Shown: one piece after another, positions 5,134 through 33,696 of the stretch | Position numbering within the stretch: position 1 is the first letter of the stretch | How the letters are laid out: each line of letters starts with the position of its first letter | Position numbers and translations under genes: made by a program | NCBI GenBank assembly: GCA_010093605.1 | Contig: MU004186.1 | Span: 1,034,616-1,098,615 of the forward strand | From: Lophium mytilinum | Lineage: Eukaryota | DNA length: 64,000 bases | Direction: 5' to 3' | Notes under the pieces: model-generated | Databases searched by the model: none | Told to the model about the DNA's origin: nothing | The model's input: only the letters and a program-made list of their open reading frames with translations

Positions 5134-5612
5134 AATCAAATAAGCGCTGGCCTGAATATGTAGATACAGAGGGAACAGATGGGTTGATCTATTGGTCTCG
5201 ATCGATGGTGGCCATTCCTATGAAATACAACAAGCATCAAGCAATCTTCCTGTCCATTATAATATGTCGTGAAAGCATGCAGTGAAAGAAGTCTTTCTTA
5301 AAAAGTGAGTGTCTGTTGCGGAGAGATCTACGCCTCCACGTTCCATCAATTGAGAACGAGACACATTACTTGCAAAGCGTACCGCGCACGTTCAGCTTCG
5401 AGGATGAATGATTTCTTCTTGGATGGTCTTTTTACGGCATATGATTTACCAATGCCCTTCACCTGAAAGCAGCCCGTATGTTACAGTCATAAAAGTACAT
5501 CATCCCAGCGTCTGACCCCAGGTCTGACCGCTCCTTTTCTACTCGAGGTCCACCCCATAGGCCCAAAAGTCGCCCGGTTTCCTTTGTTTGACCTCCGAAT
5601 GCCCAAATTCTT

Positions 5613-7608: not shown

Positions 7609-8254
7609 GCTGAGGTAAGAAAACTATGGCATGGGAGTTCAGTCGGGTTTGGGCGCGGTGTGTATGATCAACTTTGGAAAAGAAGGTGATCAGTGCATGT
7701 GCAGAATCTCAAGCGTTCTGGGAGGGTGGGGACGTTCTTGAAAACACTGGAAGTTCTTCAGTAGCTCACTGAGAGATCTATAACCTCGCAAACAGGTCCA
7801 ATTGGCTATGCTGTGATTCTATGACTCGCTTTATAGGAGACTGTGGGAGACTGGAGTTGATGCTTCCAAATCGTTATGTCAAGCTGTTCAAGTGAGTACA
7901 GTGTCTCCTATATTATTCAGGATTGCAAGAAAGAATCGAGACGGTGCAGCAGCAGAATAAGTATCGTAAAATGAAGACTTCCTCTTGATAGGAAGCGCTC
8001 CGCGACAATCCAGCCTATAAAAATCTGACTCAAAATTAGGATACCCCATCCACGCCCTCATATCCATGTCGTAGCCGTAGGTCCAGTCCAGCTTGTAGAA
8101 GCCGTTTGCAAGAGCTCCAAATCCGTGTGTTGCCATACAAAATTTCATACCTTACCCAACCTTCACGCAGGATCTTTCCCCCCTCCGTTATAGCAACCAA
8201 GTCCGAAAAGGAGTTAATTCTTTTGCCGCCCCCTTTTACTTCAAATCGAATCGC

Positions 8255-9277
8255 TCAAGCATTCGATCTCCGTGGTCGCTTGTTGTCCCCGTGGACCAAT
8301 TCATCCCCGCCACGTCTCTTTCGTGCACCTGGAAGGTAGTATATCTTCGTTCCGCTCACGCCCGGCACCGAGAAGCCCACGTTGAGCCACTTGGGGATTG
8401 CGACACGTTTGACCGGTGCTGTCAAATACTCGACTGCCTGTAATGAAAGCTCAGCCAGCTTTGATGACGAGATATTTTCCATATCAAGTGGGTAATCGAC
8501 AAAGTATGACAAGATACACGCTATCGTCAAGTCGACATGCTTCAGGTTTGGACACATTCTTTCGAAGGTAGCGATAGCCCTCTCAATCGTAAGTGCTAGC
8601 TTATCAGCCTCCCAGCACGTTGTGCGCATATCGTATTGTAAGCGTTGGAACTTTTGGGTGATATCCGGCGGAACGTAAAGAAGCGCGTCAAAATCTAGTC
8701 CGTACTGGCAGAATCTGATAGGACGACCAGTCGTGAACACGTTTCGTTCGTAGAATCGTGCCTCTGCTTCACGGTGAACCTGTTGGCTGACTGCGAAAAG
8801 GGCGAGGCTTTTTAGACGATTAGCACCACACCAGCCGCTGCGAAGTCTGGAATCGCGCCTGAAATCGCGGTCGAAATTGCGCTCTATTGTGCCTCTGGCT
8901 GTGAGGGCGAGTTCGTAGATCATGGTGCGCACTTCACCGGGCAAATCGAGAAAGCTTAGACGACTCGAGTCGATCTTCGTCCATCCTTGGATCTCGTGAG
9001 AGCAGTGGCCTTCGGTATATTCGGTTCGCCATTCGATTGTCGTTCTGGCGCCCTTGGGGCCAAGGTACTGCATCTCAAGGTCTGCGAAGAGTTCGCTAAT
9101 GTGTGGTAGTCCAACCCGGTCTGCCATCTTGCCCTGCCCTATGAACTTCGCACACCCGTCACGGAGCCGGCTCCTGTACGAGATTTGGTAGGGAATGCTG
9201 TCCACGCGAAAAAAATCCATTTTTATCACGACTTGTGTGGCTAATGTTCCTGATGTAACCAAATCAGTAAATGTCAC
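8255..9277 (-). CDS. Hypothetical protein with F-box-like/2EXR-like motif
   Basis: 340-aa ORF containing LSFLDLPGEVRTMIY. A branch/acceptor (TACTGAT...CAG) near 9250 suggests an upstream exon, so the true start is uncertain. Confidence 0.55.
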   Translation of the reverse strand: MTFTDLVTSGTLATQVVIKMDFFRVDSIPYQISYRSRLRDGCAKFIGQGKMADRVGLPHISELFADLEMQYLGPKGARTTIEWRTEYTEGHCSHEIQGWTKIDSSRLSFLDLPGEVRTMIYELALTARGTIERNFDRDFRRDSRLRSGWCGANRLKSLALFAVSQQVHREAEARFYERNVFTTGRPIRFCQYGLDFDALLYVPPDITQKFQRLQYDMRTTCWEADKLALTIERAIATFERMCPNLKHVDLTIACILSYFVDYPLDMENISSSKLAELSLQAVEYLTAPVKRVAIPKWLNVGFSVPGVSGTKIYYLPGARKRRGGDELVHGDNKRPRRSNA

Positions 9278-10163
9278 CTTATGCGTAAGACCTCCAGCCG
9301 TTATGCTTCAACTTACAACTTGCGGAACCTTGCGTCTGAGGCACGTTGGCTAGACTCGATAAGATGATGGGCCAGAGTCGATAAGCGGATGGAGGGAGTA
9401 AACGTGAAAGTGATGTCCTGGAACTATTTATTGTGAGTAGGCCGCGACGCGCACGTGGCACAAATATCGTTCCCTGGTTGAGTAAAACAGTACCAAATCT
9501 AGCCTGGTAGGCTAAGCAATGGTCCGGAATCAAAGTCTTGGTGTCACGAAACAAGGAGCTGTAGGCCGTGTATGTGATGTATTGGATGATGCTGATGTTG
9601 TAGGAGAGAAGCGGTTCGGAGGAAGGGGAGGCTATATACAAAAGGTAACGTGCGCCTGCCTGCCCTAGCTTCCATCGCTACTCGCTAACACTTAGAGCTT
9701 GATCAAATATTCTCAGGCTTCTTAAGATCTCGTAAGCAGCGGGATAACTTAGTATAAAGAGCTAAGGAGATGCGCCGTAGACAGAAAATGAATGAGGGAG
9801 TTGATGCGTCCAATTTGAAAAAATTAACCAATCAGAAAGGTGTATCGTGGTGCTACCTGGTCTGAGTTCTGCATAGAAGGGTGCTCTGATGCTCACATGG
9901 AATAGCTTGGAAAGCTGGATGTAAACTTTTATACCTAAATAAACAGTTTTACACCTTTGATCCTAAAAAAAGACTGGACTTACGTAGTTGAGTACTACAA
10001 GACCTTGGAACTCTCTCCATTGGCCCACCCTAACCTTAGTGTACATGAACTAACGACCTTCTAGAGCGCATTCTCCCACGTAGGCACACCTTCCGTGTAG
10101 AGCTAATCTTGGAACGCATCTCTTCCATTCCTCGGTAGCGTAGCATGTCAAAACCCAGGCCGG

Positions 10164-28168: not shown

Positions 28169-29283
28169 CCCTTATCGCCAGAGATCAGGCTGCTCTCCGG
28201 CTACTGTACAGGCTCTCGCAGCACGCAGGGCAGTGTCTCCGCATCAACGTTACCTTGGTGGTGTGGTATGGGTGGCCAACTGCAGCCTGCAGATACGAGC
28301 GTGTTCTAAAATTGCCGTGTGATCAGCAGCGTCGACGACCATGGTGTCCAGTTATCACGGGCGCCCTCCCGTAACACCTCTTCCCCTCTTGAAACGCTCT
28401 TCGTGCTCCTCACACTCGCTTTTGCTTGGATTTCCCTTTCTTGCGCGCCCTGAAGTCTGCAGCAGCAGCCGCGGGACGACGCCCACATTCGCTTTATCTT
28501 CAGTGCGACCCCTGACGTGCTTCAATCGCGGGGCCTTATCTTCTCCGCACATCCCTTCACCGTTCTCGAGCTGGTTTTGCTGGTGTTGTGAAGCGTTGGT
28601 GCACAGCGAATCGCCCCGGCCAGCACGTCCAGGCCTCACATCGACACATCTTCAACGTCACGACCCAGCGTTGCCAGAGTCGCAGACGCAGCCTCGACGG
28701 CATTCTCCACCTCTTGCCGGGCACCAGTACTGGAATCTGCAGGCTCCACTGGTGCATTCTTTCCCCTCCACGGTCCCCTCGTCAACAGATTCACTCATCA
28801 CCGGTGTGCTAGCATCGTCGTAGTCGCGGGAGCGCCGGACGGATCACGCAAAGCCGGATAGTCAGTCGATAGCCAGTTTAGGGCCAGTTCGGTTGCGTCC
28901 TACGGTAGAGTATCTCGGTAGCGTATAGAACCGTATTTCGGCGTATAACGCCAAGCTTGTAGAGTATACTCAGGGGGGGCTCCGTGCGGTAGATTGAGGC
29001 CCAAAACGCCACAGCTTACGGCCTGATTCACACGCCCTGTTCGGTTACCGTATTCTAGGCGTGCGTGAGGCCGTATATGAGGCGTATATTGTGGATTGAG
29101 GCTTAAAATCAGGCCATGGCCGTGGTGATACGCGAGTGACCAGAAATTGGTGATCTCGCGTCCAATTCTTAGTATAAAAGGCCGGAGTTTTTAGTTTTAT
29201 AGTAATTAGACTACAGCAAACATTTCTATATACTTTCTACGCAATTCTATCTATCCATTCTTGTTCCAGATCCTCCGGTTGAA

Positions 29284-29876
29284 ATGGCGGCCCCACTTGC
29301 CCGAATCCTTGGCGAAAATCAGATGGAAACGTTTTCTCAGGAGTTATTTAATTCCTTCACAACTACGCCAATACAGGCGCACGAAGGGCCTCCAGATGGG
29401 CCCCTTTACGCATTCTCTGGGCCTCCGCCTTCCAATCAGCCTATTATTGAGGTTCGTAGCTATTCTGCCTCTTAACTGAACCTGCTTCTAATTATTAAGC
29501 CTCAGCCGGACCTATCTGCAACTCAACCAGCTAGTTTACGTCACTTCTGGTCCATCCAACTTCAAACGGTACTTGTAGAGGCCTATACCAAGGCTGCTAG
29601 TGCTGGGCTACAGTCAGATTCTGGTTTTAAACCGGAAGCTCACAAGCTGGCAGCGGAGGCTTGTAGTGCATTAGCAGGCTATACAATTAAGCGTGAAAAG
29701 GCTAAATCTAAGCTCTCAGCGCTTAAGATGGAATACAAGATCTGGCAGCACCTAGCTGAGTGCAGTGGCGTATCAGCAGACTACGAGACTGGCCGTATCT
29801 ATGCCCCAGATGACGTTTGGGATAGATATCTAGAAGTAAGCTATATCTATCTATCTATTTATCTATTTGTGCAATA

Positions 29877-29916
<40 letters not shown>

Positions 29917-30555
29917 ACATCTAAACAGAAGCACAAAAAGGCTACAAGATATCAAACTATCTGCCTTCTAAACGCAAGCCTTCTACACGGTCTCTTCTTT
30001 GCCTCGTATGCTACTGGAAAGCATGCCGGTAATAAAGAGAGTAATAGCAGCCAAACGCCTTCCTTCCTTGCCTCACAACCCACCACTATCAACCTCACAA
30101 CTGATGCTGTTACCCAATTTAACGAAACGGACGAAAATGAACAATATAGGGCAGATACTACGTTCCTAGCACCAGCTAGTAGTATTCCAGGGGCAACGGC
30201 TCAAGGGCCACGGCTAGGGGGGCTTTTTGTGCCATCTGGGGCTGTACCAAAGCGAAAGAAGGTTACTGGAGGAGAGCTGTTAGGAAAAAGCCTTGAAAAA
30301 GCTATTTCTCTGCTTACGTCTAAGCCAAAGATCGTAAACTTCAAGGAAGAGGCTATGCGCTTATTTTAGAAGCTTGAAGAAGTAAATATCTAGGAATGGG
30401 ATATAACAATAAAAGCCTGCCTACGGCTTCGTGATGAGAATACGGCATTATGGTTTACAATGGCCCCTGAGAAATTCAGGAAGATCTGGGTAGTTGCGGC
30501 ATTACCTGAAGCTGATGAAGGAGAGCTTTTTACGCAGCTCCCTGATATTCTATAG
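29284..30555 (+). pseudogene. PIF/Harbinger ORF1, Myb/SANT-like DNA-binding protein (3 exons, two premature TAG)
   Basis: Introns 29452-29499 and 29836-29928 give HFWS...GFKPEA...YKIWQHL...SGVSADYETGRIYAPDDVWDRYLEKH...LF...ATG, the Myb_DNA-bind_3-type pattern; in-frame TAG at 30367 and 30391; terminal TAG 30553-30555. Confidence 0.88.
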
Positions 30556-30647
30556 CTGTTTCCGTACGTTTCCCTTTATCTACTGCCCCTAATACTCGAT
30601 TCCTTATTGTATAGACTGTTTCCATGTATCTTAGTGCATTTCTGTAG

Positions 30648-31192
30648 CTTAAAATCTATCTATCTATCTATCTAATATATATATACGTTATATATATATA
30701 TATATATTCTCAAAATCTATCTATCTATCTATCTATTGTGAATATACGCTATATATATATATATATGTATATAGAAACGTTATATATATATACTAAAAAT
30801 CTATCTATCTATCTATCTATCTATCTATTTTTCTATTCATCTATTCATCAATCTATGTATCTATCTATCTATCCAATTCGAAAAGGTATTTTTATCTCTA
30901 CGAATATTGCCCCGATCGCAATGGCAATAGGCGCATCGGAATTGTAATAGGATAATTCACCTAGGCCGCCTTATCCGAGCGTGATTGATCGAGAAATGAG
31001 ATTCGGCAGATAGATAGATAGATAGATAAATACATAAAAAATGGATTTCGCTCGAAAGTAGATAGAAATGTGCGCGCTGTTACAAGGATCTCAGTGCTTC
31101 AAACGGTTTGAAGATCGGATCAATATTGGTGGAGATATTCACGTTTGAATACATAGATACATAGACAAATACATAGATTGATGAATAGATGA

Positions 31193-31234
<42 letters not shown>

Positions 31235-31385
31235 TTTTAGTATATATATATAACGTTTCTATATACATATATATATGTATATAGCGTATATTCATAATAG
31301 ATAGATAGATAGATAGATCTTGAGAATATATATATATATATATAACGTATATATATATTAGATAGATAGATAGATAGATTTTAAG
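30648..31385. repeat. Long AT-rich inverted repeat built of (TATC)n/(GATA)n and (TA)n microsatellites
   Basis: Arms ~30648-30917 and ~31113-31385, near-identical over ~210 bp and diverged over a further ~55 bp; ~195-bp loop; TTAA at both outer ends. Confidence 0.92.
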
Positions 31386-31482
31386 GATATATTATCACGT
31401 ATATATTAATATATATATATAAACAGTAGAATTAAAGCGTAGCACCTGAAAGTTAAATACAATTCCGCCCTGCAAGCAGCAT

Positions 31483-32697
31483 CTATACAGCCCTCCTACG
31501 TAGATGTTCTTAATATAAATTCCACATCTGGGTGGCAATTCTATCACGAAATGCAGCCATTTCCTTGTGTTCGTTCCTGAGCGTATACATAGGAGGAGGC
31601 TCTTGTGGCTGCTCAGGAACGTACTGGATCTCTTCCATACCAGGTAACTCGGTAAGGCCGTTATAGATACGCTCTTCCTCTGTAGTATCAGGCGTGCGAA
31701 TCTTAATAAAGTTGTGAACAGCAGCTAGTGCGTATACAAGTTGTACTTGTATTTTAATACTATATTCAGGGCCTCCTAGGTGCCGGAGGGCAGCAAAGCG
31801 GCGTTTAAAGAGGCCAAATGAGCGCTTAATAGCATTGCGTAAGGAGGAATGCCGGAGGTTGAATAGTTCTTCCTTATTACTTGGTCGTTGATCCGTTTTG
31901 GCCTATTCTTAAAGGTGATAACGCGTTCCTCTATAAGAAACGAGCGTAAGGTCTGTCATAGCATATCCAGCATCAGCTAGATAGTACTTTTTTGTTCCAT
32001 CTGAAGCCTCAGGAGCATGAAAGCCGTGCTCCTGCACGGCATCAAGTAGGACCTTTCCATCGTGCGCAGAACCTTCCCATCCGGCATGGATATAGCTAAA
32101 CGTTAGGTTGAAGTTGCCTACGCCTAGTACGTTCTGCGTAACCTCTCCCTTTCAAGTCCTCCATGGGCCTTGTTATTCTATAGGGACTCGTGCTTATATA
32201 TAGGTACCATCGAGTGCACCAATACAGTCCTTAAAGTAAGGATAGTACCGGTAATCGTTGCGAATTTGAGAAGGAATAACGTGAGGGTTTGGAAGGTGGA
32301 CGGTTTCGATATATAGCTGACGCGTAACAGCTAGGACCTCGTGGAATATACGGTGTATTATATCAGGAGAGTGTTAATATAGAAATGCGGCCGTTTAAAA
32401 GGTAACACCATTGCCAACAATGAAAAGGAAGATAAGGAGCTTCTCGGTTAAAGTAATATAATAGCCTGAGCGTAGTGTTGTATTCTAGACTACCCAGCCC
32501 AGGAATTTATCGAATTGAGCGTGATTCATACGCGTATGGTTAATAAAGACCGTTTCGTGAGCACTTAGGAGGACTCTAGCTATTCGATTGCCTTGGAGTC
32601 AATCTGGGTACATTTCCTGGCGGTTATAACGCGTAAACGCATATGCGCCTATCGTAATAAGCGCAAAAACAAGTACAACCTCCGTTTGGGGGTCTAT
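31483..32697 (-). pseudogene. PIF/Harbinger DDE transposase (DDE_Tnp_4-type), inactivated
   Basis: Single frame reading PYFKDCIGALDGT, TQNVLG, AGWEGSAHDGKVL, YYLADAGY, FNLRHSSLRNAI(K)RSFG, HNF; about ten in-frame TAA/TAG/TGA stops; probable start ATG>ATA at 32697. Confidence 0.95.
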
Positions 32698-33696
32698 GAT
32701 AGATAAATTGGGGTGTTAAAAGGGTGTAGAAATAGGCTTGATTCTGCAACACCGGTAAAAGGATATAAAAAGAGCCTTTAAAACGCACTAGGCTACATAT
32801 AGTTTTGACAGGGGCTTCAATTTGCACTAGGCTATATACAGGTTTAACTTCACGATTACTACCTTGAGATACTCCTGAGGGCCTCAATGAGCAAAATCTA
32901 CCGTAGGAGCCGATTTTGTATGAGGAACGCCACTTCATAGCTTATACGCTGATATACGGGCTAGTTATAACTACGTTTTAGGAGCTACGCTTGTATCTAC
33001 GCCTACGGTTCCGAACGGGGCGTAGAAAGTAAGCGTAGGTGGATTATTAAGCAACATACTCACCGAGATACTCTACCGTAGGACGCAACCGAACTGGCCC
33101 TTAGCCAGGTGCAGCATTGGCAATCTCGGCGGCGGTTGGCACGGGCTGTTTCGACCTTCAATACAGGGCTCCCCGGGCACTCGGTGTTAAGCCCGTCCTC
33201 CAGGGACCCAAGGAACAGCGTCCGTGCTCTCCGAACCTCCTTCCGCACCTTTTCCTGCAGCCAACTCCACCCTCCCCGTCAACACCACCACCAACCCATT
33301 CACTCGCCCGTCGCTGTCGCCTTCACCCCGCCTTGTGTGCAGCTCGCCGAGCTCAGAGGCAGGCCGCAATGCTAACCTCGTCGTCTTAATCAGTCAAGCT
33401 TACCCCCCAAGCTGCGCACACCAGCACCACTGCTCTGCCGGGCTACCCAGCACCGCATCATCGACATCAGCTGTTCGCACATTGACCTGGCAGTTGACGC
33501 CTCACCGCCAGCGACGCTCATTGGCACCCTGCCACCGTCCACCGCCCGCGGATCCACCTTCACACGACCGAATAATCCTTCACTCGCCTTCGCGCGAAGG
33601 TTATCAACAGCTCCACAACCCAGCTTGGCGGAGTCTTGGAACACCCATCTATACCGAACCTTGCCCACCACGCGCTCGACCTGACTGCTATACATC

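Follow-up and report, generated by a model that had tools for sequence, protein, structure and literature searches.

A microsatellite-built palindrome between the convergent genes of a dead PIF/Harbinger transposon, tentatively read as a nested foldback-type insert

We identified a 738-nt inverted repeat (30648-31385, 27% G+C) that lies inside a PIF/Harbinger transposon, between its convergent gene pair, in the window, by which we mean the whole 64,000-nt stretch of Lophium mytilinum DNA analysed here. The host transposon is dead, and we found nothing similar to the palindrome in its relatives. Compared with these relatives, which share at most about 50% protein identity with the host, the palindrome appears to have been added secondarily and not to characterise the clade. 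Our leading reading, held tentatively and at somewhat less than an even chance, is that the palindrome is a nested, non-autonomous foldback-type element that inserted at TTAA or TA.

The original prediction described a palindrome of about 740 bp with arms of about 270 bp, and our measurements bear this out. The arms pair over 225 nt without gaps (30648-30872 with 31161-31385, 92% complementary) and, with gaps allowed, over 277 columns at 89.9% (30648-30917 with 31113-31385, E value 2e-102). Folded as single-stranded DNA, the palindrome reaches -226.7 kcal/mol versus -72.9 kcal/mol for dinucleotide shuffles (z -29), and 0 of 20 shuffles equalled it. In the left arm (30648-30917, forward strand), the outer part (30648-30872) consists of 61-bp units that combine (TATC)n and (TA)n, and the inner part (30873-30917) is unique and more diverged. 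The right arm (31113-31385, reverse strand) mirrors the left. Each arm is thus a short tandem array of a 61-bp unit that runs from CTYAAAATC through (TATC)4-10 to TA runs broken by ACGYT, as expected from the predicted ordered (TATC)n and (TA)n blocks. Unit variants follow one another in mirrored order in the two arms, unit for unit, which indicates a single palindromic structure and not two independent arrays.

Aligned with each other, the arms show 8 transitions and 5 transversions, along with 15 gap columns. Across the outer 182 nt there are 3 transitions only (98% identical), and the inner 45 nt hold 6 substitutions and 11 gap columns. The expectation that the arms differ mainly by transitions and repeat number therefore fits the outer arms but describes the inner 45 nt less well. 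Repeat number differs in the third unit, which has (GATA)10 in the right arm versus (TATC)7 in the left. These differences bear on the possibility of an assembly artefact, in which the collapse of a chimeric or fold-back read would have produced a spurious palindrome. AT-rich, low-complexity palindromes are indeed hard to assemble, but the arms differ by 13 substitutions, several indels and TATC copy number, the 195-nt centre is asymmetric, both flanks run colinearly into two genes whose order is conserved in relatives, and the window contains no N. We consider such an artefact extremely improbable.

The centre (30918-31112) is 195 nt long, asymmetric, non-coding, CpG-rich and ApT-rich. It includes a (GATA)7 run (31008-31036), in agreement with the further GATA repeats predicted for the loop. 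Open reading frames in the palindrome are low-complexity only, no tRNA was found in it, and an Rfam search of it returned four sub-threshold, low-complexity mir-297 matches only (22.8-26.9 bits versus a gathering score of 90). Neither the palindrome nor its centre has a second copy within the 64-kb window. The sequence index that we searched contained no look-alike of the centre, of 30648-30930, of the transposase DNA or of the whole element, and exact matches to a 22-mer of the centre in prokaryote genome contigs numbered 0, as expected for fungal sequence. HGATAR, the core site of fungal GATA factors, occurs 40 times in the 738 nt (23 on the forward and 17 on the reverse strand), compared with 1.94 per kb in the remaining window. 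We rejected a GATA-factor binding array as an explanation, since the high count is a trivial result of the repeat, and we assign no function to these motifs.

The host element spans 28881-33100 (4,220 bp) and carries the hallmarks of PIF/Harbinger transposons: a DDE_Tnp_4 transposase, a Myb/SANT-like gene, terminal inverted repeats (TIRs) and a 3-bp TWA target-site duplication. Its 39-bp TIRs (28881-28919, forward strand, beginning GGGCCAGTTCGG...; 33062-33100, reverse strand) are 100% complementary and are flanked on both sides by TTA (28878-28880 and 33101-33103). The two convergent transposon genes of the original prediction can thus be named. The Myb/SANT-like ORF1 is a pseudogene on the forward strand (29284-30555; Myb_DNA-bind_3, Pfam accession PF12776, E value 3.9e-13), with exons at 29284-29451, 29500-29835 and 29929-30555 (splice sites read from the sequence) and two in-frame TAG codons in exon 3, at 30367 and 30391. 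The DDE_Tnp_4 transposase is a pseudogene on the reverse strand (31510-32700), in a single frame with 9 in-frame stops. Two pieces of its reading frame match Pfam accession PF13359 (E values 5e-6 and 5e-5), the second at 23.4 bits, just under the 24.8-bit cut-off. The read-through transposase protein has 1,005 relatives at an E value of 1e-10 or lower (best 8.8e-81), of which the best are 43-45% identical. At 5 of the 9 transposase stops, most of 21 aligned relatives carry R or Q, which is the expected outcome of C-to-T decay in CGA and CAA/CAG codons. With 9 and 2 in-frame stops in its two genes (11 nonsense codons), the host element is dead.

The stop-to-stop spacer between the convergent host genes measures 954 nt. 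Without the palindrome, the spacer would be about 220 nt and the element about 3,480 bp. We found no second copy of the host element within the 64-kb window. It is a lone insertion in a gene-dense region and supplies the sole transposon-like gene(s) among the 19 largest open reading frames scanned, out of 44 of at least 170 aa listed in the window. The other 18 scanned are of housekeeping type or without a Pfam match. Neighbouring open reading frames include dihydroxy-acid dehydratase, ThiF, RCC1, SART-1, RING, F-box and WSC, as well as ArfGAP, bestrophin, M14 peptidase, Sec7, kinase and WD40.

The composition of the host is RIP-like. Its body has a TpA/ApT ratio of 1.22-1.70, compared with 0.67-0.77 in the flanking genome and 0.74-1.15 in 14 complete relatives, and all three parts of the body have a composite RIP index greater than 0. 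The RIP substrate index is within threshold only in 32701-33101 (0.66), with 0.92 and 1.14 in the other parts (thresholds as given in excerpts of PMC7882544). Both 39-bp TIRs are still 100% complementary despite the 11 nonsense codons and the RIP-like body; RIP-type decay seems to spare the extreme ends of the host element.

The centre of the palindrome has a composition of its own. Its TpA/ApT ratio (0.64) is below that of all 291 host-body windows of the same size, and the composite RIP index of the 195-nt core (-1.15) is matched or undercut by only 5 of 620 body windows. The odds ratio for CpG is 1.5-1.6 in the centre, 0.8-1.05 in the host body and 0.9 in the genome background; that for ApT is 1.4-1.5 in the centre versus about 1.0 elsewhere; and that for ApC/GpT is about 0.5 in the centre and 0.75-1.0 in the host body. 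The TpA odds ratio of the centre, 0.95, is intermediate, with 0.7 in the background and 1.2-1.5 in the body. Because the low TpA/ApT ratio of the centre comes in good part from its excess of ApT, we take it only as a sign of distinct composition. The idea that the centre escaped RIP, and that an insert is younger than the death of its host, was weakened by normalisation: CpA/TpG is depleted to the same degree in the centre (odds ratio 0.82-0.85) and in the host body (0.84-0.86), compared with 1.07 in the background, so the centre gives no clean signal of an unmutated insert. Moreover, 5 of the 8 arm-to-arm transitions, as read from the arm alignment, are of the CpA/TpG-to-TpA type. Together with the depletion in the centre, these transitions suggest that the palindrome itself probably went through at least part of the putative RIP.

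We compared the host with 80 metagenome loci that encode relatives of its transposase at a best-segment protein identity of 32-50%. A Myb-domain match (E value of 1 or lower) was present in 28 of the 80 loci, and in every one of these 28 the Myb match follows the transposase and is encoded on the other strand, implying that the convergent layout is ancestral. The other 52 loci lack a Myb match, and many of them are short contigs. For the interval between the genes we used 21 loci, namely the 25 with a Myb match at an E value of 1e-3 or lower minus 4 with an incomplete match to the transposase C-terminus. Between the transposase stop and the end of the Myb domain lie 513-963 nt in these relatives (median 574) and 1,677 nt here, or 939 nt without the palindrome. 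Inverted repeats at an E value below 1e-5 occur in 20 of the 80 loci and are mostly the elements' own ends; none lies within the transposase-Myb interval in the 21 relatives. The same 21 intervals contain no (TA) run of at least 4 units and no TATC/GATA run of at least 3. The 250 nt past the transposase stop show no excess folding in the relatives (median z -0.26, range -2.6 to +2.9).

From stop to stop, the spacer spans -4 to 169 nt (median about 20) in the 13 of the 21 loci in which the Myb stop, placed by an ORF heuristic, is credible; the other 8 (L007, L021, L028, L033, L034, L044, L045 and L079) were dropped for spurious antisense ORFs. In 14 TIR-bounded relatives the element is 2,841-4,239 bp long (median 3,060), with L021, L028 and L066 left out of this set as ambiguous. 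Searches of the palindrome, its centre and the subterminal regions against the 80 relatives by blastn gave only chance matches of 15-40 nt. Since the spacers of relatives are tiny and hold neither an inverted repeat nor a microsatellite, the palindrome does not appear to be an ancestral Harbinger module. The comparison speaks to the clade as a whole, the relatives being too distant to separate a palindrome specific to this copy from one specific to its immediate family.

Two further observations concern the relatives themselves. Near-identical Harbinger relatives occur in the contig pairs L010/L011, L044/L045 and L001/L002, which suggests that the relatives are multi-copy or recurrent in their source communities. 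Beside the relative in L028 (5187-9861), an extra inverted pair links 8256-8377 with 9701-9821 (122 nt, 92%), and further pairs link 5226-5277 with 8207-8259 and 5187-5233 with 9815-9861. These extra pairs suggest nested or abutting TIR elements.

The relatives bear directly on two functional proposals of the original prediction: a built-in terminator, or a hairpin by which the element regulates itself. As a module native to all copies of the family, the palindrome would either form a 3'-end and terminator used by both genes, one from each direction, or give rise to hairpin RNA and siRNA when either gene is read through. It is placed symmetrically past both stops (92 and 124 nt), and its TA runs are self-complementary and read the same in both directions. 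UAUAUA-type efficiency elements take part in yeast 3'-end formation. The arms would form a hairpin of 225-270 bp, TATC repeats occur elsewhere in the Harbinger too, and a native module may predate RIP, as the RIP-type arm transitions and the depleted centre would allow. Yet 0 of the 21 convergent relatives have an inverted repeat, a microsatellite or excess folding in this place, and their spacers are about 20 nt. Moreover, each host gene keeps its own spacer of about 90-120 nt before the palindrome, siRNAs from the arms would match neither coding region, and the copy is dead, with its 11 nonsense codons, so a present function of the palindrome cannot be argued. We thus regard a native module as unlikely, and neither the terminator nor the self-regulating hairpin finds support as a family feature.

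All 10 TATC/GATA runs of at least 3 units in the 64 kb, and all 6 (TA) runs of at least 6 units, fall between 29844 and 31421, inside the Harbinger. One of the TATC runs is not in the palindrome but, as predicted, in an intron of ORF1. Intron 2 (29836-29928, forward strand) is 93 nt long and is filled by (TATC)n at 29844-29916 (period 4, 18.5 copies by TRF), 730 bp from the palindrome. Of 8 relatives inspected, 7 have an intron at this very codon (L038, L041, L015, L011, L010, L079 and L049, with L034 as the exception). In these 7 relatives it is about 52-59 nt long and without the repeat, and its sequence is identical in L010 and L011. In at least 10 other relatives, the alignment runs through this position uninterrupted. 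From these alignments the position of intron 2 appears to be ancestral; with the intron present in some relatives and absent from others, it would have been gained or lost within the clade. The position follows the Myb-domain motif '...W..(Y)L/I.'. The original prediction took the intronic TATC repeat as a sign of native origin. The repeat is real, and the ancestral position of its intron strengthens the point.

The tips of the palindrome were examined for signs of a target site. TTAA is present at both outer ends (30649-30652 and 31381-31384), as predicted, but it lies inside the repeat (CTTAA...TTAAG), where internal units have CTCAA and CTAAA at the corresponding position, their start. The tip motif CTTAAAATC is a variant form of CTCAAAATC and CTAAAAATC, with which units inside the array begin. 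TTAA is thus part of the repeat and resembles the unit starts, and is not demonstrably a target duplication. The termini read AATC...GATT and are made of microsatellite (AATCTATC...), and to our knowledge they match no known superfamily end. On inspection of the sequence, no direct repeat of 8-10 bp, the length of the target duplications of Tetris and of MULE-related foldbacks, was seen flanking 30648-31385.

Three candidate origins for such an element were rejected. A 3-bp TWA duplication would shift the arms by one base, out of register. A Tourist-like MITE derived from the host Harbinger is not indicated, as the host TIR (28881-28919) has no blastn match to the palindrome at an E value of 1e-3 or lower. 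As for a piggyBac-derived MITE, TTAA is present at both ends, but the termini are not CCC...GGG, with which piggyBac ends begin. Of the superfamily signatures that we looked for (piggyBac termini, likeness to the Harbinger TIR and 8-10 bp duplications), the palindrome carries none.

The two flanks differ in their relation to the arms. The arms had been placed about 95 nt past each stop. This is accurate for the left side, where a spacer of 92 nt (30556-30647, forward strand) separates the Myb stop from the palindrome, and less so for the right, where the palindrome ends 124 nt from the transposase stop. The left flank does not resemble the arms, its score being equalled by 528 of 1000 shuffles. 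The right flank (31386-31437) has the look of an extra, degenerate 61-bp unit, composed of a TA-run, ACGT, a TA-run and TAGAATTAAAG. It aligns locally with the terminal unit over 52 nt. The score is 41, shuffled sequences average 32.2, and 52 in 1000 of them reach at least that score; TRF carries the 61-bp array on to 31422. The 8-mer TGTATAGA occurs in both 3' spacers (about 30604-30611 and 31483-31490), in the sense of each spacer's own gene and about 50 nt and 20 nt past the Myb and transposase stops, respectively. About 0.17 shared spacer 8-mers are expected by chance, and the sharing may mean nothing.

The unit-like right flank supports a second account, in which the palindrome grew in place with neither a mobile element nor a function. 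Under this account, a TA-rich terminator tract in the transposase 3' spacer would have grown into a 61-bp minisatellite with TATC, the inner arms would be an older, imperfect short inverted repeat, and an intramolecular template switch would finally have copied the right array, inverted, onto the left side (quasi-palindrome extension). A unit-like right flank (52 of 1000 shuffles) beside an unrelated left flank (528 of 1000) is what one original and one copied arm would leave. Likewise, outer arms that are 98% identical around diverged inner arms would reflect a young extension of an old short repeat. The TATC repeat, otherwise absent, also fills the ancestral intron of the host element. At the same position as the palindrome, directly past the transposase stop, the relative in L075 has about 180 nt of low-complexity, almost pure A+T (1760-1940; TTTA/TATT-like, 67% self-complementary), and several other relatives have AT-rich tracts there, which suggests that simple sequence can grow past the transposase stop.

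Growth in place nonetheless presupposes that the native spacer was about 565 nt or longer (the 92 nt, the inner arms, the centre, at least one unit and the 124 nt), and the largest of the 13 spacers measured in relatives is 169 nt. It also leaves some 290 nt of complex inner-arm and centre sequence with a dinucleotide make-up unlike that of the host body, gives a chance of about 5% that the repeat would end precisely on a unit boundary, and calls for several rare events in one copy. We place it as a close second to the nested insert, a real possibility that we nevertheless think rather unlikely.

We favour the nested insert for three reasons: the complex centre needs a source, the spacers of relatives are tiny, and the ends of the palindrome are sharp and symmetric, falling at a unit boundary and the palindromic TTAA. 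With clade spacers of tens of bases, the approximately 290 nt of complex inner-arm and centre sequence have no obvious native source. Removing the palindrome brings the spacer (about 220 nt) and the element (about 3,480 bp) into or near the range of the relatives. The palindrome also has the foldback form, with long TIRs that contain internal tandem repeats and flank a non-coding middle. The gradient in arm identity, from 98% in the outer part to far lower in the inner part, fits inheritance from a master element.

In this nested-insert reading, the palindrome would have entered, as a later addition, the short 3' spacer that separates the convergent Harbinger genes. The two arms of about 270 nt would be its TIRs and the 195-nt centre its non-coding middle domain, making it a small, foldback-type, MITE-like DNA element with long TIRs. 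It would have been mobilised by a transposase supplied in trans, and its target would have been TTAA (or TA) within an AT-rich spacer some 220 nt long. The palindrome-free junction would then read ...GTAGCTTAAGGATAT..., and the empty site ...CTGTAGCTTAAGGATAT.... RIP-type C-to-T mutation would have inactivated the host Harbinger afterwards. Read-through hairpin RNA and extra termination at the TA runs would be by-products, the palindrome having no evident role for the host element.

Several findings stand against an insert. Only one copy is known, with no second in the 64-kb window; all 10 TATC/GATA runs lie in one Harbinger, one of them in an ancestral intron; and the right flank continues as a degenerate unit (p of about 0.05). 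A random insertion into the host would land in the spacer with a chance of 6% if length alone counts, 10% if TA sites are the targets and 15% if TTAA sites are (4 of 27). Among the three hypotheses of the original prediction, the nested non-autonomous element is the best and has become our leading reading, but it is unproven, and the TTAA offered in its favour is no evidence for it.

The closest structural parallels are foldback transposons, such as Drosophila FB and Tetris of D. virilis. As far as excerpts of the description of Tetris indicate (PMC4079207), these elements resemble the palindrome in having long arms with tandem repeats, a non-coding middle without an open reading frame, and sub-repeat copy numbers that differ between arms. 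In Tetris, according to the same excerpts, the TIRs reach 1,735 bp and contain 220-bp repeats, a unique flanking domain lies outermost, and target duplications are 8-10 bp long (PMC4079207). The palindrome differs from that account in its arms of about 270 nt, whose 61-bp microsatellite units run to the tip, and in a candidate duplication that is only the palindromic TTAA or TA, with none of 8-10 bp (PMC4079207). It further differs from Tetris and FB in its fungal host and in its one known copy. The matches listed in a full-text literature search included no description of a foldback transposon of fungi.

MITEs that target TA or TTAA (derived from Tc1/mariner or piggyBac) are similarly short, AT-rich, non-coding and bounded by inverted repeats, lie in non-coding DNA and can nest in other elements. 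They typically have TIRs of tens of bases and of unique sequence, unlike the palindrome, for which no family of copies is known either. A fungal example of a MITE is mimp. Fungal MITEs are also the subject of work on Epichloe (excerpts of PMC3227409).

The palindrome can also be set beside transposons tied to microsatellites, such as Micron of rice. MuTAnT, according to excerpts of its description, is a MULE that targets TA microsatellites (PMC4486113). MuTAnT and Micron resemble the palindrome as TIR elements closely tied to (TA)n tracts, but in them the microsatellite is the flanking target, and here microsatellites build the arms. The host itself is a conventional two-gene PIF/Harbinger transposon in its DDE_Tnp_4 and Myb/SANT-like ORF1 genes, convergent layout, TIRs and 3-bp TWA duplication. 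It differs from its relatives in being a pseudogene copy with a 954-nt spacer; their spacers have a median of about 20 nt, and they lack an internal palindrome.

Two more far-reaching interpretations seem to us very unlikely. In the stronger one, the host would represent a Harbinger subfamily with an acquired, shared palindromic 3' module; reading through from either convergent gene would yield an identical hairpin RNA of about 250 bp, and this would act as an RNAi trigger or bidirectional terminator and limit the element's own activity. In the milder one, the palindrome would be the first-seen member of a fungal foldback family that is cut at TTAA and has TIRs made wholly of micro- and minisatellite units.

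As a caution for similar cases, TTAA at the tips of a palindrome is not in itself evidence of a target duplication. Because the host is dead and its relatives lack the feature, neither origin points to a new regulatory principle. If the palindrome arose in place, it would be a natural example of a minisatellite and a quasi-palindrome that grew into a long palindrome in neutral DNA. If it is a nested foldback element, it would add to the sparse fungal record a small, oddly built non-autonomous element with arms made of microsatellite.
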